Shown: positions 25,444 to 37,123 of the stretch, piece after piece
Layout: every line of letters starts with the position of its first letter
How positions within the stretch are numbered: position 1 is the stretch's first letter
IMG/VR virus record: IMGVR_UViG_2713896795_000003
Location: 1 to 37,123 of that record
Strand: one strand, 5' to 3'
DNA length: 37,123 nucleotides
Source: a virus
Lineage: Duplodnaviria > Heunggongvirae > Uroviricota > Caudoviricetes
Translations under genes and position numbers: made by a program
Notes under the pieces: model-generated
What the model was told of the DNA's origin: nothing
Seen by the model: the letters and a program-made list of their open reading frames with translations, nothing else
Database searches by the model: none

Positions 25444-26784
25444 ATGGCTACTTGGCAAGGATCAAATGGCGGATTGTTGGCTGGTATCGGCGGCGTCAAC
25501 TCAAACGCTCCGAGCGTAAATGACATCGGCAATACGCTTCAGCTTATCAGGCAGAACAATGATATTGAGCGTTCAGGCGCTAACAATGTTGGGCTGACTG
25601 CTTTGCAAGGCCTTTCAGGTATTGCAGGGGTGTTTCAGCAGGAAAAGCAGGCTCAGCGGCAGAAAGAATTTCAGCAGGCGTACGCTAATGCTTATGCGTC
25701 TGGTGATCGCGGTGCTTTGCGTCAGTTGGCTACTCAATATCCAGACCAGATTGAATCCGTTCGTAAAGGCATGGGATTCATTGATGAAGACCAGCGCAAT
25801 TCTATCGGCACCTTAGCGGCTGGCGCTCGTCTTGCGGCATCGTCTCCAGAAGCAATGCAATCATGGCTGCAAAACAACGCCAAGGAACTGACTCGCGTCG
25901 GTGTTGACCCTAATAACGTTGCTCAGATGTATCAGCAGAATCCTTCAGGATTTGGTGAGTTTGTTGATCACCTTGGGATGGCTGCGCTTGGTCCGATTGA
26001 TTACTTCAATGTTCAGGACAAGATGGCTGGTCGCCAACTTGAGAAAGGGCGATTGGATGAAAGCATCCGTCAGGCTGACATGGAGAACGCGAGAGGATGG
26101 GCAAATATCCAAAACGCTCAACTAGACAGGGCTCAGCGGGCACAAATGCATAATGATAACGTAGCCCTGAAGTTGCAGGAATTAGGGATGAAACAACAGG
26201 AAAGCGGAAAGATTGACCCAAAACTTGTTCGAGATCTGAATAGTGATATTAATGGGTTCTCAAAGAATTATTCTGCAATGCGCAGTGCTTCTGACAACCT
26301 ACAAGCCCTTGGGAAGCGCAACACTCCAGCCGCGCAGTTGGGAATGATTTTCAACTATATGAAATCGCTGGATCCGCAATCTGTGGTACGCGAAGGTGAG
26401 CAAGTGCAGGTAAAACGCACTGATGGAATATTCGGCACACTTGGTAACTATGTTAGCCAATTATCTAACGGCAAGATGCTGAATAATGAGCAAGTCCAAG
26501 ACTTAATCAACACCTCAAAACTGATGGCAAATACTGAAGGCGAAAAGTTTAATCAGCAAATGGATGATTATCTTTCAACTTATGGAGATTCTCTCCCCAG
26601 CGGACTAACTAAGCAATTGCAATCCAGAAAAGCCAAGCTGTATGAAGATATTCAGCAGCCTGCGCAACAACAGACACAACAAGCAACATCTGGCGGTCAA
26701 ACATTTCGAGAAGGTATGACCGCGAAAAATCCTAAAACTGGTCAGAAAATTATTTACAGGAACGGACAATGGCAACCAATGTAG
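25444..26784 (+). CDS. Ejection protein (P22 gp20-like)
   Basis: 446 aa; synteny. Confidence 0.7.
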   Translation: MATWQGSNGGLLAGIGGVNSNAPSVNDIGNTLQLIRQNNDIERSGANNVGLTALQGLSGIAGVFQQEKQAQRQKEFQQAYANAYASGDRGALRQLATQYPDQIESVRKGMGFIDEDQRNSIGTLAAGARLAASSPEAMQSWLQNNAKELTRVGVDPNNVAQMYQQNPSGFGEFVDHLGMAALGPIDYFNVQDKMAGRQLEKGRLDESIRQADMENARGWANIQNAQLDRAQRAQMHNDNVALKLQELGMKQQESGKIDPKLVRDLNSDINGFSKNYSAMRSASDNLQALGKRNTPAAQLGMIFNYMKSLDPQSVVREGEQVQVKRTDGIFGTLGNYVSQLSNGKMLNNEQVQDLINTSKLMANTEGEKFNQQMDDYLSTYGDSLPSGLTKQLQSRKAKLYEDIQQPAQQQTQQATSGGQTFREGMTAKNPKTGQKIIYRNGQWQPM

Positions 26785-28892
26785 GTTTACCAGAGGGGTT
26801 TGTTCTGGATGAACAGCCTGATAACTCACAACTTCCTGATGGCTTTGTGCTTGATTCCCAACCAGAACAGCAGCAATCTCCTTTGGTTTCACCAGAGGAA
26901 AATTCCAGACAGGAAAATGTTGTTAATAATGCTAACGGTTTCGACCGTTTTATGTATGGCGTTCTCAGTGGATTGATGGATGTTGGTAAAGGTGTTGGCC
27001 TGTTTCAGGATATGACACCAGAAGAGCAAGCCGCAATTCAGTCTCTACAGCAGAAGTTAGCGGCAAAACCATCAACCGCACAAGATGTTGGTGAGTTTGT
27101 TGGACAAGCAGCGCCATTTGTTAGTGGTGGTGGGATTATTTCTCAGGTTCCGAAAGGGGCGGCAAGGCTGGCTGCCGCCGCAGGGCTTGGTGCTGGAGAA
27201 GGGGCTATTGTAGCCAATGGAACAAATAGCGATGTTGCTTCCGGCGCTGCTATTGGCGCTGTGGCTGGCCCTGTAGCCGAGATTGTTGGTCCAGCGCTTG
27301 GGAAGATTGCAGGAAAAATTAAAAATAGTGCCGGAGATATTTATCGCTCATCCGTAGGGATGGGCAGTAAATCATCTAAAGCAACGTTAAAGAAAGCTGC
27401 TGGTGCAATGGATAATAAATTTATTGGTGGGCAACGAGCTATTCAAGATTTCGCCGATGAAGTTAATCCTGATTTTAACGCGATAAATGCTATTCGTGAG
27501 CTAGAACTGGAAAATTATGCCACTCCAGGCATGATCTCTAATAATCCTGCTGTCAGGGCTCTTGATAATGCAGTGGCAAGTCTCCCTGGAACAGAGATTA
27601 GTGAGGCGCATAAGCGTTTTATTACTGAATTAGGAAGAAAAGCTGATGAAATGATAACTTCATTTGGGGGAAACCTTGATAAGCAACTGGTTTCTGACAG
27701 GCTTGCAGATAATTTTGATAAAACCATTTCATCATTACAAAATCAGTCAGATAACATCTACAACAAAATTGCCGAAAAGGTACCTGTAAGAGACCGGATT
27801 GAGGCAACTAATACATTGAATTTTTTAGAGGATTTTGCTGATGACATAGGTGGAATTGATGAATTATCTCCAATAATGAAGCGGACATTGAACCGACTTG
27901 ATCCAAACACCTTGCCAACGTATGGGCGTTTAGATCTCGCTAGAAAGCAGGTTGGACAAGCTATTGGCAAAGGCTCTGGTCCATTCAAGGATGAAGAAAC
28001 AGGTGTTCTTAAAAAGTTATATGCAGCCATAACAGATGACCAACAGGCTGTCGCAGAAAAATATGGCGCAGGGGAATTATGGACGCTTGGTAAGGAGTTG
28101 GTAAAAAAACGAAAATCCATTGAAGATGATGCTGTAACCGTCTTGGGTAGAAAACTTCAGCAATCAGCAATTCCAAAAGTTGAAAGTGCTGTTGTTAATA
28201 TGGCAAAAGGAAACGGTGGCGACTTTAGGCAATTAATGAAGTCGATTCCAAAGGATATGCGGCAGGAAGTTGCGCTCACCTCAATGAATAAAGCATTTAC
28301 CAGCTATGCCAAATCACCTGGTCAGCAATTAGGAGTTGATGGATTTGTAAAATGGTATAACGGAATGTCACGCAATGGGGCCAATATGAAGGCTCTCCGT
28401 GATGCTATTGGCACAGATGCATCAAAGCGCCTTGATACGATTTATCAAGCAGCTAAGGCTATGAATAGACTCAATACTGGTAAGCAGTATGCTAGTAGTC
28501 TTGTGGATCAGCAAGTTAATAACTTTCTGAAAGAAAAGGGTAGTCTCGCAAAAATTTATGGAATAGCCTCAAAAGCTGCTGCGGCGGAAGGTATTACAAG
28601 CTTATCTGGTCTTCCTGGTGTAGGTGCAACAGGGGTGATAACGTCCGCATTGATGTCAGGGAAAACAAGCAGGATAAAGGCTGCTGATGCTCTACTGTCT
28701 TCTCCTGAGTTTAAATCAATGCTATTTCGCCTGCAAAACGCACCAGTAGACAGAGCAGAAGTGAGACGCGTAATAGAAAGGAAACTGATGCAATCTGGGG
28801 CATTTAAGAGATGGGAGAAAACCTTATCAACAGATGAAGCAAAAACCATTGCCCGCACGGGGATTATTACATGGCTCGCTAGTGACAGTTAG
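26769..28892 (+). CDS. Ejection protein (P22 gp16-like)
   Basis: 707 aa; synteny; start overlaps gp20 3-prime end. Confidence 0.7.
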   Translation: MATNVGLPEGFVLDEQPDNSQLPDGFVLDSQPEQQQSPLVSPEENSRQENVVNNANGFDRFMYGVLSGLMDVGKGVGLFQDMTPEEQAAIQSLQQKLAAKPSTAQDVGEFVGQAAPFVSGGGIISQVPKGAARLAAAAGLGAGEGAIVANGTNSDVASGAAIGAVAGPVAEIVGPALGKIAGKIKNSAGDIYRSSVGMGSKSSKATLKKAAGAMDNKFIGGQRAIQDFADEVNPDFNAINAIRELELENYATPGMISNNPAVRALDNAVASLPGTEISEAHKRFITELGRKADEMITSFGGNLDKQLVSDRLADNFDKTISSLQNQSDNIYNKIAEKVPVRDRIEATNTLNFLEDFADDIGGIDELSPIMKRTLNRLDPNTLPTYGRLDLARKQVGQAIGKGSGPFKDEETGVLKKLYAAITDDQQAVAEKYGAGELWTLGKELVKKRKSIEDDAVTVLGRKLQQSAIPKVESAVVNMAKGNGGDFRQLMKSIPKDMRQEVALTSMNKAFTSYAKSPGQQLGVDGFVKWYNGMSRNGANMKALRDAIGTDASKRLDTIYQAAKAMNRLNTGKQYASSLVDQQVNNFLKEKGSLAKIYGIASKAAAAEGITSLSGLPGVGATGVITSALMSGKTSRIKAADALLSSPEFKSMLFRLQNAPVDRAEVRRVIERKLMQSGAFKRWEKTLSTDEAKTIARTGIITWLASDS

Positions 28893-29116
28893 TCAACTTT
28901 GGTTATTTTGCCTTCTTTTTCTTGATGAACTTTGCATCCATCATCTTTTGATAGCCAAACTAAAAACTTTAAAACCTTAAACACAAGTACGGCTACTGCA
29001 ATGAAAGCACCAATCGCAATTATTGCTAGTGAAATTATTTGCATTGGTGCTTTTAATGCTGGGAAAACAGTGTAAATGAGCAAAAAAACAGCAATTATGA
29101 TGAGCCATTGCTTCAT
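28889..29116 (-). CDS. Hypothetical small membrane protein (75 aa, two predicted TM helices)
   Basis: ATG with GGGAGGA SD; hydrophobic stretches WLIIIAVFLLIYTVF and IISLAIIAIGAFIAVAVLVFKVL; 3-prime end overlaps gp16 stop convergently. Confidence 0.6.
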   Translation of the reverse strand: MKQWLIIIAVFLLIYTVFPALKAPMQIISLAIIAIGAFIAVAVLVFKVLKFLVWLSKDDGCKVHQEKEGKITKVD

Positions 29117-29144
29117 GTTGTCCTCCCAGGTTTTATTGGTAAGA

Positions 29145-29705
29145 TCACTGCTTTATTTTGGTATCATGGGTTTCACTAGCGGCTTCCTTCGCAGTCGGCT
29201 CAGAAACCTTGAAGTAAGATTGAATCTGCGGAAGCGTTATGATTACCGCAAGCATAGCGAGAACCGCACCAACGAGCCATTGGGTCGCGGTCATGGATGT
29301 TTTAATGCCATCAATTTGACCTTTGAGCCCTGCAACTTCGCCATTGCTAGCGAATATCTGTCCCTTAATTTCATTAAGTGACTGATTCATAGCTGTAAAT
29401 TGCTTAGATTGGAATTCTCTGAAAGCTGAAATTTCAGCGCGCATGTTAGCAGATATTAACTCAATTTCTGCTTTGTTTTGACCAAGCTTCGCGTCAATCT
29501 CTTCTCTTGATGGGCTGCCCATAGCATGCTCCTCAGTGTATTGTTTTCCAAGATAAGCGATATTATTGTTTTTGGTTATATCATTCTTGGTAACTGGAGG
29601 CGAAGCATTGGACTTTTCTCCTATGCCACCTGTCGACCCCATACGACCAAGCGTTCTCTTTTTCTCCGCTGCATGATCAGCATTTACGGCAGGAAAAGTA
29701 ATCAT
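29145..29705 (-). CDS. Hypothetical membrane-anchored coiled-coil protein (186 aa; alternative 125-aa form from ATG 29522)
   Basis: Heptad-like central region and C-terminal TM WLVGAVLAMLAVIITL; ATG 29705 has poor SD whereas internal ATG 29522 has GAGGAG at -7. Confidence 0.55.
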   Translation of the reverse strand: MITFPAVNADHAAEKKRTLGRMGSTGGIGEKSNASPPVTKNDITKNNNIAYLGKQYTEEHAMGSPSREEIDAKLGQNKAEIELISANMRAEISAFREFQSKQFTAMNQSLNEIKGQIFASNGEVAGLKGQIDGIKTSMTATQWLVGAVLAMLAVIITLPQIQSYFKVSEPTAKEAASETHDTKIKQ

Positions 29706-29712
29706 GGCTCTG

Positions 29713-29991
29713 TCAGCTTAATTTTTTTGATTCTTCGTGTTGAGAAACTATATACTTAGCCAGTTCAAGAAGTTGATTTTCACTCATGCGAATGTTGGCA
29801 ATTTGGTATCTAACTGGCTGAATCTCCTCATTATTAACCCAGTCTGAAACATGCTTAAAAAATGCTATTGAACCAAATCTTGCTCCGACATCCCCAAAAG
29901 ACGAGTAAGCAAATCCATCAGCATACTCATTTACAGCATCACTTGAGTCCTTGAAGATGGTTTCTCTGAAGTTCACTTTGGTATCTGTCAT
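29713..29991 (-). CDS. Hypothetical protein (92 aa)
   Basis: ATG 2 nt after mnt stop with AAGGA SD inside mnt 3-prime end (translational coupling). Confidence 0.55.
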   Translation of the reverse strand: MTDTKVNFRETIFKDSSDAVNEYADGFAYSSFGDVGARFGSIAFFKHVSDWVNNEEIQPVRYQIANIRMSENQLLELAKYIVSQHEESKKLS

Positions 29992-29993
29992 AT

Positions 29994-30242
29994 TTATTTA
30001 TCCTTACCATACATGGTCTTTAGCGTCTCAACATCGTGTTCAAGATCTATCAATCGTGATGCTATAGTTGCAAGGTCTAGTGCTTGAATGTGTTTATTTT
30101 TTTCGGTCCACGCTTCAAGTGCCGCGACCATCTCAGCATTTAATGAACGAGAATTAGCCTCAGCAAGTTCAATAAGACGTTCCTTTATCTCTACAGGAAG
30201 CCTCAGATTCACTTGAGGGTTTTTGTACTTACGATCAGACAT
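29994..30242 (-). CDS. mnt: Mnt-like ribbon-helix-helix repressor
   Basis: 82 aa; RHH motif VNLRLPVEIKERLIELAEANSRSLNAEMVAAL resembles P22 Mnt, plus C-terminal helical tail; divergent from arc. Confidence 0.65.
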   Translation of the reverse strand: MSDRKYKNPQVNLRLPVEIKERLIELAEANSRSLNAEMVAALEAWTEKNKHIQALDLATIASRLIDLEHDVETLKTMYGKDK

Positions 30243-30263
30243 CGCCGCATCCTGAATAATTTT

Positions 30264-30335
30264 TTACCACAGGATATGTAGGTATCTATTGACTATCAAT
30301 GCGTACCTAAATACTATGTATGCGTACCACATACA
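30264..30335. promoter_or_regulatory. Divergent overlapping promoters (Pmnt leftward, Pant rightward) with palindromic operators
   Basis: Pant -35 TTGACT 30289-30294 / -10 TACTAT 30312-30317; Pmnt -35 TTGATA (plus 30294-30299) / -10 TATCCT (plus 30271-30276); nested palindrome TAGGTA...ATTGA-cta-TCAAT...TACCTA 30279-30309; palindrome TGTATG-N7-CATACA 30317-30335. Confidence 0.5.
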
Positions 30336-30347
30336 ACGGAGGATACA

Positions 30348-30488
30348 ATGAAGGTTAAAACACTGCGTATGCCAGAGAAGCTAGAAAAAATTCTTGAAGA
30401 AAAAGCAAAGGAAGAGTGTCGCTCATTCAGTGCAGAAGTAATTAAACGGGTGCTGGACAGCCTGAAGAGGGAGGGGGTAACAGTGTGA
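30348..30488 (+). CDS. arc: Arc-like ribbon-helix-helix repressor (46 aa)
   Basis: Hand-translated MKVKTLRMPEKLEKILEEKAKEECRSFSAEVIKRVLDSLKREGVTV resembles P22 Arc; GGAGG SD 7 nt before ATG. Confidence 0.6.
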   Translation: MKVKTLRMPEKLEKILEEKAKEECRSFSAEVIKRVLDSLKREGVTV

Positions 30489-30658
30489 TTTGCTTGGATG
30501 CAGTAGTCAAAGAGATTGTGCTTACCATTTTGAGACCAAATTTTGTTCATGGCGAATCATTTGGCGCGAACGAAAAATTGAGAAGAGAAAGAGTATTCAG
30601 TGGCAAGCGCACGTTTTCAGAAGTGATGCTTGATGCGGCAAAGAAATCAAAACAGTGA
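30485..30658 (+). CDS. Hypothetical small ORF (57 codons, GTG start)
   Basis: GTG overlaps arc stop (GTGTGA) with G-rich SD; no ATG alternative; may instead be non-coding spacer. Confidence 0.2.
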   Translation: MICLDAVVKEIVLTILRPNFVHGESFGANEKLRRERVFSGKRTFSEVMLDAAKKSKQ

Positions 30659-30721
30659 AGCCCCAACTGCGGGAACAGTCAGGGCTTCGGTATCGTAAAA
30701 CCACGCATAGGAATTAACGAC
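30645..30721 (-). ncRNA. sar: Candidate sar-like antisense RNA covering the ant translation initiation region
   Basis: Minus-strand promoter -35 TTGATA (plus 30751-30756), 17-nt spacer, -10 TATACT (plus 30728-30733); minus-strand hairpin GAAGCCC...GGGCTTC (30657-30688) followed by U-rich tract. Confidence 0.4.
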
Positions 30722-31645
30722 ATGAAAAGTATAGCAACAGCAGTATCTACTATCAATGTACCATTCCACGGCGCAGAGCTTTATGTTGTCAATCACAACG
30801 GCGAACCGTACACCCCAATGAAACCTATCGTTGAGGGAATGGGGCTAGACTGGAAATCTCAACATAAGAAGATTTCTCAACGCTTCTCGAAGGGTATGGT
30901 GGAAATCACCATACCTTCTGCCGGTGGGGTGCAAGCCATGATTTGTATGGCTTTACGAAAATTGGCAGCTTGGTTGAACAGCATCAGTCCTAACAAAGTC
31001 CGCCCTGAAATCCGCGACAAGGTAATCCAGTATCAGGAAGAGTGTGACGATGTGCTCTATGAGTACTGGACTAAAGGCCATGTGGTTAACCCGCGCAAAG
31101 CTAAAAAGGCGTTGCCGGGGAAAATCACCACTGAACAGCAGGAAGCCATTAAACAACTCGTCATGAGTCGTGGTCAGTCTCTGCCAAAAGAAAAACAGGC
31201 GAAGGCAATGATTACCATGTGGTCGTCACTGAAATCCCATTTTGGATGTTCGTACAAAGAAATCAGTGAGGAGCAGTTTACAGAAGCACTGTCACTTGCA
31301 GCTCGAGTTCCACTTGAAGGTGAGTTCATTGGCAAACAAGAGAAGAAAGCAAACGAGCTTTCTGCAAAAGAAGCAAACAGCCTTGTATGGCTATGGGATT
31401 ATGCCAACCGCTCACAGGCATTATTCCGCGAACTTTATCCGGCATTAAAACAAATTCAATCGAACTATTCCGGCAGATGTCATGACTGCGGTTATGAGTT
31501 CTCCCGTATTATCGATATAGCGAGAGACGTTTTAATCAATCACTCACGAGATGTTGATATCAATGAGCCAGACGGACCAACGAATCTTTCCGCATGGATG
31601 AGACTTAAGAATAAAGAATTACCTCCTTCAGTACATAACTACTGA
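30722..31645 (+). CDS. ant: Antirepressor Ant
   Basis: 307 aa; N-terminal region ...LYVVNHNGEPYTPMKPIVEGMGLDWKSQ...LRKLAAWLNSISPNKVRPEIRDKVIQYQEECDDVLYEYW resembles P22 Ant from memory; follows mnt/arc. Confidence 0.8.
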   Translation: MKSIATAVSTINVPFHGAELYVVNHNGEPYTPMKPIVEGMGLDWKSQHKKISQRFSKGMVEITIPSAGGVQAMICMALRKLAAWLNSISPNKVRPEIRDKVIQYQEECDDVLYEYWTKGHVVNPRKAKKALPGKITTEQQEAIKQLVMSRGQSLPKEKQAKAMITMWSSLKSHFGCSYKEISEEQFTEALSLAARVPLEGEFIGKQEKKANELSAKEANSLVWLWDYANRSQALFRELYPALKQIQSNYSGRCHDCGYEFSRIIDIARDVLINHSRDVDINEPDGPTNLSAWMRLKNKELPPSVHNY

Positions 31646-31662
31646 CAGATAACCAACGCAAC

Positions 31663-31688
31663 AACCCAGCTTCGGCTGGGTTTTTTTA
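31663..31688 (+). terminator. Intrinsic terminator after ant
   Basis: CCCAGCttcgGCTGGG followed by TTTTTTTA. Confidence 0.75.
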
Positions 31689-31698
31689 TGCCCAAAAT

Positions 31699-31786
31699 TC
31701 ACCGTAGCTACTCAGCGGCTATGGCCTTGAGAGATAGCACTACACAAAAAGTGTAGTGCAAAAAGCAAACAAATACTCACCGTAGC
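31699..31786. repeat. Direct-repeat / inverted-repeat / direct-repeat element
   Basis: TCACCGTAGC at 31699-31708 and 31777-31786 flanking a perfect 9-bp-stem hairpin GCACTACAC-aaaaa-GTGTAGTGC (31737-31759). Confidence 0.4.
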
Positions 31787-32102
31787 CACGCTGCAGCGAT
31801 TCCTTTTATCTGGAGCAGATTAAATGACAGATATTATAAATAGGAATTGTTATTTAATAATATTTGAAAATGAAAATCATGGACGATAGGAATAAAAGTA
31901 GTACTTGTTATTTTTAAGTGACGCATTAAACGCATAAAGCATATGTCTGTTGATCAAGATTCTTGCTTGTTGTAAAATAATTGTTTTGTTCATGTTGCAT
32001 AGTTTTAAAATGGATAGAAGATTATTTTTCAAAACAATTGCATCTTTGTCTGCAGTCATTCCGTTTTCTTCAATATCTAAATTTTCAAACAGGATGACTA
32101 AT

Positions 32103-34808
32103 ATGCCTGAGATAACTCCAAATGTTGTAATTGGGATGCCTTCTCAACTCTTCACTATGGCGCGTTCTTTTAAAGCCGTAGCTAATGGCAAAATTTATAT
32201 CGGTAAAATTGACACTGACCCGGTAAATCCTGAAAACCAGATTCAGGTTTATGTGGAGAACGAAGACGGCTCTCACGTTCCTGTTTCTCAACCAATCATC
32301 ATTAACGCTGCTGGATATCCGGTATATAACGGACAGATTGCCAAATTCGTAACTGTGCAAGGCCATTCTATGGCTGTTTACGATGCTTATGGCACTCAGC
32401 AGTTTTATTTTCCAAATGTATTAAAATACGATCCAGATCAGTTTGGCCCAGACTTCAAAGAGCAGTTATCTCAATCAGGAGCATACATTAATGATGATTC
32501 AAAAGGTGATGCATTAATTGGTGTAAGGCAGCCATTTACCGGGGCTGTAACTATAACTCAGCATGAAAACAATGCTCTTTTCTTAAATGTAAAACAATTT
32601 GGAGCAATTGGGGATGGGAAATATCATCCATTATCTGAGTGGTTTTCTTCAATTTCTGAAGCAAAATCCTTATATCCTTTTGTTGACTCATTATCTCAGT
32701 CAATAGACTGGGCCGCGTGGCAAGCTGCCCTTAACACAGGAAAGGTTATTTATGGTACTGATAATGCGTATGTAATAACGGATACGTTAACACCTGTTTC
32801 TGGTGGTGGGATAATTTGTCTTGGTGTGGGCAAATGGGTCTCAGGATATACTGCAACATTTGCTCCTGATATTACCACAGGAACCACATTCCTGATGTAC
32901 GGGGTAGGAAATAAAAAATATACTGTAGATTGTGTTTCTAATATGGATGTTAGTGGTGGTGTGGTTTCTAATCCATCTTCCGAAGACCCGTATACAACAA
33001 CGGCACCTGCGTCATCATATGATTTATTGGATTTTACTAACGGTGATGCTAATGGGGCTATAAGAGCCACGCTTAAACCATTCTCTGCCGCAATATTGAT
33101 GCCTGAGACAGGATGTGTTCGTCTTGAGAACTTTCGTATTGTTCCATATTTCAATGGGCTGGATGGTTATAAAGACATTGCAAATACCGGTCTTGGCGAT
33201 GAGTGGGATGTAGGTATTTGGTCACGTGCTTCTTTTGGCAATGAATACCGCAATTTGCAGGTGGTTGGATACTGGCGCAAGACGGCACTTTTAAAAACGA
33301 ACATTCCTGTATCTGGCACGCTGGCCGCTCAGGGCGAGGATGAAAACTATTATCACTGTAGATTCCAAGGATTCAAGGGTGTTTCGATCCGCGCCCATGA
33401 TGTATTCCGAATTACAGCGGTAACGTCCAGCACTATCGAAATCCCATGGTCAGCAAGCCACACCTTCGAAACGTCCGGGGTTTTAAGATCTGGAGGCAGG
33501 AATTTCACTTATTCAGGATTATCCGTATCCGGTGATAAGTTAGTATTTACTGGAGTGTCTAACGCTTCTGAGGCAACAGTAGGTTCTACTATACGGCGAA
33601 ATGACATAGATAACTTTGGTATGGCGGGAACGCAATTTTTCGATTGCTACATTACCAGCCTGTATCACCACACACATCTGCTTGCCACATCGCAATACCT
33701 GTCTCAACCATTCAGCCGACCATCAGAGTGTATGGAGGTTTCAGGGGAACCAGTTCGCGGTGTACAGGTACATGCAGGAACCATTCAGGGATGGGATGAT
33801 GTTCTTATTCATCTACATGACTGTGGAAATATGAACTTTTACAGTACATATTTCGAAAGCCAGCAAGCATATGTAACTATAAATGGTGGTAATGCTATTG
33901 GTTATGGAGCACGTATGATAGCTTCCCGGCAATCAACAAGCTCATTACCATATGCAGCAGGGAATACTCGAGTGCTTAGAATGGTCGGGTGCTCTGAAGG
34001 CAATGGCGTTGACTGGGGGCATGTATTTAACAACTATACAGGAGGAAGATATAATTCTGGAGACGGTGTATTTAACCCCCGCGATGCATTTATAGACCAT
34101 AAATCTCTTCCTGAGCAGTCAGGAGGTGAGTCAAGACTCGTATCACAAAAAGGAAATGCCAGAGTAGTATGTGGTGTTGGTAAAACTGTACTGCTTGGAC
34201 CAACGTCAGGAGATTGTAATTTACAGAGTAATACTGGAAGTTTAAATATTAGAAGTGGGATAAGAGTAAGAATCGGTCACGCTGATGGAACAGACTGGTG
34301 GTTGGCAGATGCTAATAAAATAGCTCCTGTTGATGATAATGTTAAAGCTATTGGACAGCCATCAAACAGATGCTCTGTTATTTATGCAGGAACCGGGTCA
34401 ATCAATACATCAGATGAAACTCTTAAAACAAGATATGATATTCTTAATGCAGAGCGTGATGCCGCTATTGAAATAAAGTCAGTCATCTATAAATTTAAAT
34501 TTAATGACTCAATTAATCACAAAGGAATTGAGTCGTCCAGGTATCATTTTGGCGTTGGCGCTCAAACCGTAGGGGATATTCTTAGAAAGCATGGTTTAAA
34601 CCCTGAGCAATATGCTTTTTGGTGTTACGATGAATGGCCTGACGTATGGGATGAAGAGGTGATAACTGAAGAGAGCACAGATCCTGATACAGGTGAGAAA
34701 ATTTATTCTCAATATAAAACAGGAGATATGATTCTTGTAAAAAAAGCAGGAGGACGCTACGGAATTCGTTATGACGAATTGGCTATGTTTATATTAATGG
34801 CAATGTAG
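32103..34808 (+). CDS. Tailspike: P22-type head-binding domain + beta-helix receptor-binding/depolymerase domain + C-terminal S74-type chaperone domain
   Basis: N-terminus [46 protein letters not shown]... resembles P22 tailspike head-binding domain; central QFGAIGDG pectate-lyase-like motif; C-terminal SDETLK motif; AGGA 8 nt before ATG 32103 (alternative ATG 32094). Confidence 0.85.
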
Positions 34809-34826
34809 TTGCAATAAATGCAGTAT

Positions 34827-34858
34827 ATCCCGCATAAAAAATGCGGGATTGTTTTTAT
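34827..34858 (+). terminator. Intrinsic terminator after tailspike
   Basis: ATCCCGCAT-aaaaa-ATGCGGGAT followed by TGTTTTTAT. Confidence 0.75.
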
Positions 34859-35149
34859 CTGGTGTATTTATGAATTTTAAGTAAATTTTAGTATTGATTA
34901 CTGCATCGCAGTTAAAGCCTCATTACCTATGAGGCAAAACTGAGACACACAAGGCTTTGCACTGGATTGCAAGGCTTTGTGCTATTCGATTGTGGTTGAG
35001 GCTGATCACTCTACCTTCTCATCAAGCCAATCCGCCCACCATTGCATCATTTCTCTGCGCTTATCGAGATACTGAGCATGGTTGTAAATTCAGCAAACGA
35101 CGTAATGTGTTTGACAAAAAATTAGCGCAAGAAGACAAAAAGTCACCTT

Positions 35150-35326
35150 GCGCTAATGCTCTGTTACAGGTCACTAATACCATCTAAGTGGTTGATTCAT
35201 AGTGACTGGATATGTTGTGTTTTGTAGCATTGTGTAGTCTATTTTTTAGACTAAAAATATTGTAATGCATTGATATTAATGGTTTTTAATGTTTCACGTT
35301 CAGCTTTTTTATACTAACTTGAGCGA
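35150..35326. other. attR: lambda-type P arm plus 15-bp core GCTTTTTTATACTAA (35312-35326)
   Basis: Core matches the lambda att common core; left flank CTGTTACAGGTCACTAATACCATCTAAGT...GTTGATTCATAGTGACTG resembles lambda attP P arm; right flank CTTGAGCGAAACGGGAAGG resembles E. coli attB B-prime arm (from memory). Confidence 0.8.
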
Positions 35327-35407
35327 AACGGGAAGGTAAAAAGACAAAAAGTTGTTTTTAATACCTTTAAGTGATACCAGATGGCATTGCGCCATCTGGC
35401 AGAGTGA

Positions 35408-35884
35408 TTAACTAAACATCGCAGTAATCGAGGCACTCGCCAGAGAGTGAAAATGAACGTTAAACCCGACCATCGCGCCGCTGGCACCTTCATCGACATC
35501 AATACGTTCTACATCCAGCGCGTGAACGGTAAAAATGTAGCGATGGGTTTCGCCTTTCGGCGGCGCTGCGCCATCGTACCCGGTTTTACCAAAGTCGGTA
35601 CGCGTCTGCAAAACGCCGTCTGGCATAGCTACCAGACCAGAGCCAAACCCTTGCGGTAATACGCGGGTATCAGCGGGTAAATTAACAACTACCCAGTGCC
35701 ACCAGCCGGAGCCGGTTGGCGCATCCGGGTCATAGCAGGTGACAACAAAACTTTTCGTTCCCACAGGAACATCATCCCACGCCAGATGCGGTGAAATATT
35801 ATCGCCATCGTAACCCATGCCGTTAAAGACATGACGATGCGGCAGCTTATCGCCATCGCGCAGATCGTTACTGATGAGTTTCAT
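35408..35884 (-). CDS. ybhB: YbhB (PEBP/RKIP-family protein), host gene
   Basis: 158 aa MKLISNDLRDGDKLPHRHVFNGMGYDGDNISPHLAWDDVP... recognised as E. coli YbhB; GGAGGC SD. Confidence 0.9.
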   Translation of the reverse strand: MKLISNDLRDGDKLPHRHVFNGMGYDGDNISPHLAWDDVPVGTKSFVVTCYDPDAPTGSGWWHWVVVNLPADTRVLPQGFGSGLVAMPDGVLQTRTDFGKTGYDGAAPPKGETHRYIFTVHALDVERIDVDEGASGAMVGFNVHFHSLASASITAMFS

Positions 35885-35992
35885 TAGAATGCCTCCGGGA
35901 AACCTCGGCCTTCAGACCGGGGAGGAAAGGAGGCGGTTTTCCGACTAACTGTACTTTGCATAATCACATTTTCCTCTTTAGTATGTGAACAC

Positions 35993-37123
35993 ATGAAACG
36001 CGCATATAAATACCGGTTTTACCCGACAACTGAGCAGGCTGAGCTTTTAGCTCAGACGTTTGGCTGTGTGCGCTTCGTCTACAATTCCATCCTTCGTTGG
36101 CGTACCGATGCGTACTACGAGCGAAAAGAAAAGATCGGTTATCTACAGGCCAACGCTCGCCTTACGGCGCTCAAAAAAGAGCCTGAATACATATGGCTGA
36201 ATGATGTTTCCTGCGTTCCCCTCCAGCAGTCGTTGCGCCACCAACAAGCCGCCTTTGCTAACTTCTTTGCCGGACGAGCTGCATATCCGGCTTTCAAAAG
36301 CAAACGGCACAAACAGGTGGCTGAGTTCACTGCCAGCGCGTTTAAACACCGTGACGGCGAGTTGTATATAGCAAAGAGCAAGTCGCCGCTGGATGTTCGC
36401 TGGAGTCGAGAATTACCATCTGCGCCGTCAACCGTTACCATTTCCAGAGATAGCGCTGGCAGGTACTTTGTTTCCTGCCTGTGTGAGTTTGAACCTGTAT
36501 CAATGCCTGTTACCGCTAAAACGGTCGGCATTGATGTGGGCTTAAAAGATTTATTCGTCACCGATACCGGATTCAAAACCGACAATCCCCGCCACACCGC
36601 TAAATATGCGAAGCGATTAACGCTGCTACAGCGACGTTTAAGCAGGAAGCAAAAAGGCTCAAGAAACCGTATTAAAGCCCGCTTAAAGGTCGCCCGACTC
36701 CACGCGAAAATCGCCGATTGCCGGATGGACAATCTGCACAAGTTGTCCCGCAAACTGATTAACGAAAACCAAGTTGTTTGCGTCGAATCCCTCAAGGTGA
36801 AAAACATGATCCGCAACCCGAAGCTGTCTAAAGCAATAGCTGACGCAGGCTGGAGCGAACTTGTTCGCCAGCTCCAGTACAAAGGCAAATGGGCCGGGCG
36901 GTCAGTGGTCGCCATTGACCAGTATTTACCGTCCTCAAAATGCTGTAGTTGCTGCGGTTTCACCATGCAAAAAATGCCTCTTAATGTTCGTAAATGGCAC
37001 TGCCCTGAATGCGGCGCAGACCATGATCGCGACATTAACGCGGCACGTAATATTAAAGCTGCCGGGCTGGCAGTGTTAGCCCACGGAGAGCCTGTAAACC
37101 CTGAATCGCAGCACGCGGCTTAG
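35993..37123 (+). CDS. tnpB: TnpB (IS200/IS605-family OrfB, RuvC-like RNA-guided nuclease family)
   Basis: 376 aa; RuvC-I TVGIDVGLKD, RuvC-II VVCVESL, RuvC-III CGADHDRDINAARNI; zinc-finger CSCCG...CPECG; no tnpA in window. Confidence 0.85.
   Translation: MKRAYKYRFYPTTEQAELLAQTFGCVRFVYNSILRWRTDAYYERKEKIGYLQANARLTALKKEPEYIWLNDVSCVPLQQSLRHQQAAFANFFAGRAAYPAFKSKRHKQVAEFTASAFKHRDGELYIAKSKSPLDVRWSRELPSAPSTVTISRDSAGRYFVSCLCEFEPVSMPVTAKTVGIDVGLKDLFVTDTGFKTDNPRHTAKYAKRLTLLQRRLSRKQKGSRNRIKARLKVARLHAKIADCRMDNLHKLSRKLINENQVVCVESLKVKNMIRNPKLSKAIADAGWSELVRQLQYKGKWAGRSVVAIDQYLPSSKCCSCCGFTMQKMPLNVRKWHCPECGADHDRDINAARNIKAAGLAVLAHGEPVNPESQHAA

Follow-up and report, generated by a model that had tools for sequence, protein, structure and literature searches.

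The stretch of DNA analyzed here (37,123 nucleotides, in the following referred to as the window) is delimited by two stop codons, that of a Gp157-family gene at its start and that of a tnpB gene at its end, i.e., it was cut at gene boundaries. Its virion module was assigned by means of Pfam to the families P22_portal (2e-170), P22_CoatProtein (1e-75), and Phage_stabilise (gp10; 9e-300), together with the Sf6-type needle knob Phage_tail_NK (3e-107) and the Head_binding domain of the tailspike (1.7e-65), and a DNA-ejection protein was recognized by its PHROG match. All late and early genes within the window are represented by full-length ORFs comparable to those of free phages. The features of the right-hand part of the window that are relevant to the following analysis are:

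29994-30242: Arc-like repressor gene of the immI region (PHROG).
30654-30720, minus strand: sar antisense RNA (RF00262; Rfam, 76.6 bits), located just upstream of the antirepressor gene.
30722-31645: P22-type antirepressor gene (Pfam P22_AR_N and P22_AR_C).
32103-34808, plus strand: tailspike gene (901 aa), the last gene of the late operon, with a P22-type head-binding N-terminal domain.
34827-34849, plus strand: intrinsic terminator-like hairpin and T-run closing the late operon directly behind the tailspike gene (a 9-bp stem with 5 G-C pairs and a T-rich tail in the terminator scan).
35006-35089, minus strand: stub of an Sf6/IntS-type (argW-specific) integrase gene, consisting of the last 27 codons (81 nt, 35009-35089) and the TGA stop codon (35006-35008).
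35114-35164, minus strand: predicted sib/tI hairpin followed by a U-run (minus-strand RNA fold of -30.2 kcal/mol, z = -6.6 vs. shuffles).
35303-35317, plus strand: 15-bp common core O of lambda, GCTTTTTTATACTAA.
35318-35407, plus strand: B' arm and attB-ybhB spacer (host DNA), base for base as in K-12 attB in the alignment.
35408-35884, minus strand: ybhB, encoding a 158-aa PEBP-family protein (Pfam PBP, 1.4e-41), the host gene nearest to att-lambda on its bio side.

The closest phage genomes regarding the virion module, with approximately 95% DNA identity, were E212, EC.P3, CUS-3, phiv205-1, Kapi1, and Sf101. Judging from its gene content, the prophage is P22-like (Lederbergvirus-type), and 'CUS-3/Sf101-like' is the more precise designation, these phages being nearer than P22 itself. 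The initial annotation had described the virion module as P22/Sf6-like, which is in agreement with the portal, coat, gp10, needle knob, and head-binding tailspike matches, and with the sar RNA, the only Rfam family detected in the window. Three further ORFs of the immI region (75, 186, and 92 aa; 28889-29991, minus strand) are flanked by the gp16-like ejection gene and the gene for the Arc-like repressor and matched only PHROGs of unknown function; superinfection-exclusion or moron genes are frequent at this position in P22-like phages. Within the tailspike, no Pfam match was obtained for the central receptor-binding part, and the C-terminus showed a weak similarity to intramolecular chaperones of the endosialidase type (Pfam Peptidase_S74 and End_tail_spike, ~1e-4).

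The tailspike stop codon is separated from the core by 494 bp. Scanning of the ORFs in this interval (34809-35302) for glucosyltransferase or acetyltransferase genes of the gtrABC/oac type revealed none, and its longest ORF comprises 76 aa; since no longer ORF precedes the core, gtrABC/oac genes are absent between tailspike and att, just as the initial annotation had stated for O-antigen conversion genes. The 76-aa ORF, which starts with TTG, and a 40-aa ORF on the minus strand were rejected as genes, both overlapping sib and P1 and being too small for gtrABC/oac.

To characterize the right junction of the prophage, positions 35090-35400 were aligned with the attP sites of lambda (J02459), 434, and JEP4, and with attB of E. 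coli K-12; the J02459 record provides annotations of the Int footprints and the core. The core GCTTTTTTATACTAA, comprising the 7-bp overlap TTTATAC with the core-type sites C on its left and B' on its right, is an exact match and occurs only once in the window (35303-35317). It was also the sole match when up to two mismatches were allowed throughout the window, for which 0.16 matches are expected. All core columns of the alignment are identical between the window, lambda attP, K-12 attB, and the attL and attR sites of the related prophage in the complete E. coli genome UPEC_U013 (U013 in the following). To the left of the core, the P arm (-160 to +7 relative to the core center) could be aligned without gaps over 168 positions, of which 144 (85.7%) are identical to lambda attP, 156 (92.9%) to 434 attP, and 157 (93.5%) to JEP4 attP. 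The following sites were predicted within the arm (positions relative to the core center in brackets):

35168-35177, plus strand (-142 to -133): P1 arm-type Int site AGGTCACTAA, in sequence and position the same as in lambda, 434, and JEP4, and inside the 'int 1' footprint of J02459.
35185-35197, minus strand (-125 to -113): H1 IHF site AATCAACCACTTA, fitting WATCAANNNNTTR at the lambda offset, the N4 spacer being changed at one position.
35199-35208, minus strand (-111 to -102): P2 arm-type Int site CAGTCACTAT, a perfect consensus identical to lambda, 434, and JEP4, and inside the 'int 2' footprint of J02459.
35211-35243, plus strand: Xis-binding region composed of X1 (35211-35223), X1.5 (35224-35230), and X2 (35231-35243), the latter overlapping the Fis site.
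35211-35223, plus strand (-99 to -87): X1 TATGTTGTGTTTT, identical to lambda.
35231-35243, plus strand (-79 to -67): X2 TGTGTAGTCTATT, with two differences from lambda and two from 434.
35263-35275, minus strand (-47 to -35): H2 IHF site TATCAATGCATTA, fitting WATCAANNNNTTR at the lambda offset and identical to the JEP4 sequence.

The names and roles of these sites (P1, H1, P2, X1, X1.5, X2/Fis, and H2) were adopted from the lambda att literature; we presume that they apply here, where the sites are putative. Both IHF sites match WATCAANNNNTTR at offsets common to lambda, 434, and JEP4. The X1.5 region (35224-35230) is identical to that of 434, and the X2 of 434 itself also departs from lambda, the divergence of the window X2 from lambda being of a similar degree. 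Compared to the attP-Int-Xis systems of lambda and 434, the core, P1, P2, and X1 are thus identical, the H1, H2, and X2 offsets are kept, and the sib/tI element and the host B' arm are the same. The 14% divergence from lambda resides in spacer segments, and the P arm of the window corresponds to the 434 variant. In contrast to both systems, the window contains a recombined attR placed on a podoviral P22-like late region and not on the b region of a lambda-like siphovirus.

On the other side of the core, the phage arm is replaced by the bacterial B' arm CTTGAGCGAAACGGGAAGG..., followed by ybhB. The segment from the core to the end of this gene (35303-35884) shares 97.9% identity with K-12, for which the annotated gene order is ybhC-attB-ybhB-bioA, and the source contig continues beyond ybhB with tnpB, bioA, bioB, and bioF. 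Since the phage P arm lies to the left of the core and the bacterial B' arm to its right, the junction is, by its sequence, of the type P-O-B', i.e., an attR of the lambda Int system located in the ybhC-ybhB interval. Several statements of the initial annotation were hence corroborated: it had noted a lambda core and a lambda-like P arm at the right junction (here an exact 15-bp match and an ungapped arm of 168 nt with 86% identity to lambda and 93% to 434 and JEP4), placed ybhB immediately beyond on the bio-proximal side, and concluded that the integration module is of the lambda type, in line with the core, the arm sites at lambda offsets, and the host B' arm. The comparison of 35150-35326 with lambda attP and E. 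coli attB that it had proposed gave matches for both arms, so the resemblance is genuine. Its coordinates were also right, with the addition that the functional unit begins slightly earlier, at the sib/tI hairpin (approximately 35114-35164). The right boundary of the prophage can accordingly be set to the base, at the core in 35303-35317.

A solo tnpB gene (35993-37123, plus strand; 376 aa) encoding an IS605 OrfB protein with a Cas12f-like TNB domain was found in the host DNA between ybhB and bioA, with no Y1 tnpA gene adjacent to it. K-12 possesses only a 58-bp spacer at this position, and the same gene is annotated as InsQ/TnpB beside ybhB in numerous E. coli genomes. Any omega-RNA of this tnpB would fall past the end of the window.

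The left end of the prophage, where int would be expected, is located beyond the available sequence. Within the assembly collection, the exact tailspike protein was found on one contig only (GCA_001077955.1, LFKC01000009.1), whose locus is base-for-base identical to window positions 26103-37123, and window position 1 corresponds to contig position 600. This draft contig begins 599 bp to the left of the window, within the mosaic early-left region, and the attL/int end is located beyond it. No homologue of lambda Int or Xis was detected anywhere in the window, which agrees with the placement of the integrase outside the window in the initial annotation. Nevertheless, the junction reveals which integration system was used, although int is absent from the contig. 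An exact 120-nt search of genome contigs with the left end of the window gave no match, and look-ups of RecT and Gp157 led to mosaic prophages of other genomes that match the window over 1.8-2.4 kb, at its left end only, with 98-99.6% identity.

Information on the probable architecture of the missing end was obtained from related prophages. The genome U013 encodes the same tailspike and is 98.3% identical over the stretch from tailspike to tnpB. It harbors a P22-like prophage exactly between ybhC and ybhB, including xis and a 356-aa int, the products of which are identical to lambda Int at 351 of 356 positions and to lambda Xis at 71 of 72. Its attL adjoining ybhC reads CCGTTGAAGCCT-GCTTTTTTATACTAA-GTTGGCATTATAAAAAAGC..., corresponding to B-O-P' with a P' arm identical to that of lambda, and a distance of 40,245 bp separates the two cores. 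The matching attL and integrase upstream, which the initial annotation had suggested locating, were in this way found by proxy in related complete genomes. No identical complete genome was found; U013 was the best match, its P-arm variant (87.5% identity) and its early genes being different. Two further genomes (L007 and L008) show the same xis-int-ybhC end as U013. An Int with at least 351 of 356 residues identical to lambda, accompanied by Xis, is encoded in U013, in L007 and L008, and in the phages JEP4 and 434. Among the 25 best-matching complete E. coli genomes listed, a tailspike or head-binding protein of the P22 type is encoded next to ybhB in 17.

Taken together, it is highly probable (roughly 0.9) that the region 35114-35317 represents attR (sib, P arm, core, and B') of an apparently complete P22-like prophage that was integrated by lambda-type Int recombination at E. 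coli att-lambda between ybhC and ybhB. The relatives described above suggest that the left end of this prophage is intact and that it may still be able to excise. The arrangement as such is already known and reflects ordinary mosaicism, examples being available from phage genome sequences and from numerous E. coli genomes.

Alternatively, the junction may be a relic, i.e., an orphan or locked-in attR left behind after int, xis, or attL had disappeared from the prophage or from a predecessor at this site. The contig does not include the left end, and decay does occur at this locus, as illustrated by a shortened int of 256 aa at ybhC in another genome (L018). However, the core and all P-arm sites examined are conserved, the late and early genes within the window are full-length, and related prophages possess complete xis and int genes. 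Moreover, the contig ends in an early-left region that is common to other lambdoid prophages, which is a usual artefact of short-read assembly, and a relic is therefore improbable.

It was also considered whether the P arm originates from a lambda-like siphovirus in a tandem or hybrid arrangement of prophages, in which the P22-like element itself did not use lambda Int. Lambdoid prophages recombine in situ, and the P arm and its upstream flank are 92% identical to the siphovirus 434. Such an origin is nonetheless very improbable, because the free, packaged phages JEP4, Huey, and Gally carry the tailspike, stub, sib, attP, and int contiguously, the short interval between tailspike stop codon and core (494 bp, see above) contains no siphovirus genes, and the prophage of U013 is a single 40.2-kb element between two cores. 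A resemblance to lambda att by mere chance is refuted by the exact core, the ungapped 168-nt arm with 86-93% identity to known attP sites, and the correct B' flank.

Following the preferred reading of a lambda-type integration, Int would have performed strand exchange within the TTTATAC overlap of the shared core, joining the P arm to B' at the junction described here, while the far prophage end, outside the contig, would contain the B arm joined to P' along with int and xis. By analogy with lambda, excision would require that Int connects P2 with the core, that Xis, together with Fis, occupies X1, X1.5, and X2, and that IHF is bound at H2, in synapsis with attL. The sib/tI stretch aligns to lambda, 434, and JEP4, and the homologous stretch is annotated as a sib retroregulation site in the HK97 record. 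In lambda, sib/tI acts as the RNase III retroregulation site and as a terminator for int transcripts. With sib unlinked from int in the prophage, int transcripts originating from pL after induction would be predicted to escape RNase III-dependent decay.

The interval between tailspike and sib provided indications regarding the origin of this module combination. The peptide deduced from the integrase stub, IYNHAQYLDKRREMMQWWADWLDEKVE, is identical at 27 of 27 residues to the C-terminus of IntS from E. coli CH10508 (tblastn, E 1e-15). All aligned sequences agree up to ...GGTTGTAAAT (35089); beyond this position, the full-length intS keeps its reading frame, and the sequence changes to TCAGCAAACGACG...TTGACAAAAAATTAGCGC, leading to sib, in the window, JEP4, and 434. 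DNA matches to CUS-3, Sf6, IME10, N7, and others likewise all stop at 35089. No full-length IntS-like integrase was found in the window, which holds the last 27 codons only. A scan of the window for tRNA genes was likewise negative, which excludes integration of the tRNA type; tools for predicting prophage boundaries that assume integration of P22-like phages at a tRNA would put the right end of the prophage in the wrong place.

The stub probably represents the scar of a swap of the integration module from the argW type to the att-lambda type, in which, as we infer, recombination within the 3' end of an Sf6/IntS-type int gene linked the P22-like late region with the lambda-type module. The same stub is present upstream of sib and a lambda-type attP in 434, JEP4, Huey, ev099, and mEp332, and it is absent in lambda, HK97, and HK106, whose homology begins at 35112; in this respect, the window resembles 434 and not lambda. 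Tentatively, and with somewhat more doubt than confidence, the stub may be regarded as a 'linker' homology that is common to one class of lambda-type att modules and moves together with them (the class of 434, ev099, mEp332, JEP4, and Huey, to which lambda, HK97, and HK106 do not belong) and enables swaps between argW and att-lambda by homologous recombination across siphoviral and podoviral lambdoid phages with an Sf6/IntS-type int. The locus illustrates module shuffling among lambdoid phages, which will be no surprise to the phage specialist.

The counterpart of this arrangement is represented by phages of the CUS-3/Sf6/Kapi1 type with an IntS-like integrase, which feature a closely related virion module, and by the P22-like argW prophage of CH10508, which shares the tailspike and the downstream spacer through the last 27 integrase codons with the window. 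Unlike the window with its 81-nt stub and att-lambda junction, these elements still possess an entire integrase gene; the tailspike of CH10508 is followed by full-length intS and a tRNA-Arg gene, whereas the window is devoid of a tRNA. The tailspike is 98.7% identical in the argW-integrated prophages of CH10508 and CS5L, where it adjoins intS. As the same tailspike is thus found in argW/intS prophages, tailspike and integration module reassort independently.

Among free phages, JEP4 (MT740315) shares the order tailspike, int stub, sib, P arm, core, and lambda-type int, its Int being identical to that of lambda at 353 of 356 positions. The Lederbergvirus taxonomy of JEP4 and of Huey (PQ850609) was confirmed. 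The virion modules of JEP4, Huey, and Gally (OV696608) are approximately 94-95% identical to the window over the shared parts; Huey matches P arm and core, and the Gally match ends short of the core. These phages differ from the window in being free genomes with attP (P-O-P') and in their tailspikes and immunity regions, and JEP4 additionally features a small ORF between tailspike and att. The window P arm is also matched by vB_EcoP-720R6 and vB_EcoP-611R6.

P22-like phages use headful packaging that starts at pac within the small-terminase gene and moves rightward. If the prophage were packaged in situ, the process should therefore run through attR into ybhB and bio, as deduced from the direction of the late operon. 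A headful-packaging P22-like prophage residing at att-lambda would be positioned for lateral transduction of flanking host DNA, as reported for phiHS3 (bioRxiv 10.64898/2026.05.19.726188). This temperate P22-like phage of E. coli HS was shown experimentally to lysogenize upstream of ybhC, to excise both spontaneously and on induction, and to transduce flanking host DNA laterally, and it groups with CUS-3, JEP4, and 720R6 (bioRxiv 10.64898/2026.05.19.726188). Its likeness to the prophage studied here refers to the site and phage type as described, not to the sequence. The literature search yielded only this preprint as relevant, with nothing on P22-like phages in combination with ybhB and nothing specific on a lambda integrase in P22-like prophages.

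The phage record ON470605.1 (vB_EcoP-720R6) matches the window up to position 35887, i.e., through attR and all of ybhB. Because the match spans the whole of ybhB, this 'phage' record contains host DNA, and it could stem from a prophage, from aberrant excision, or from lateral transduction.
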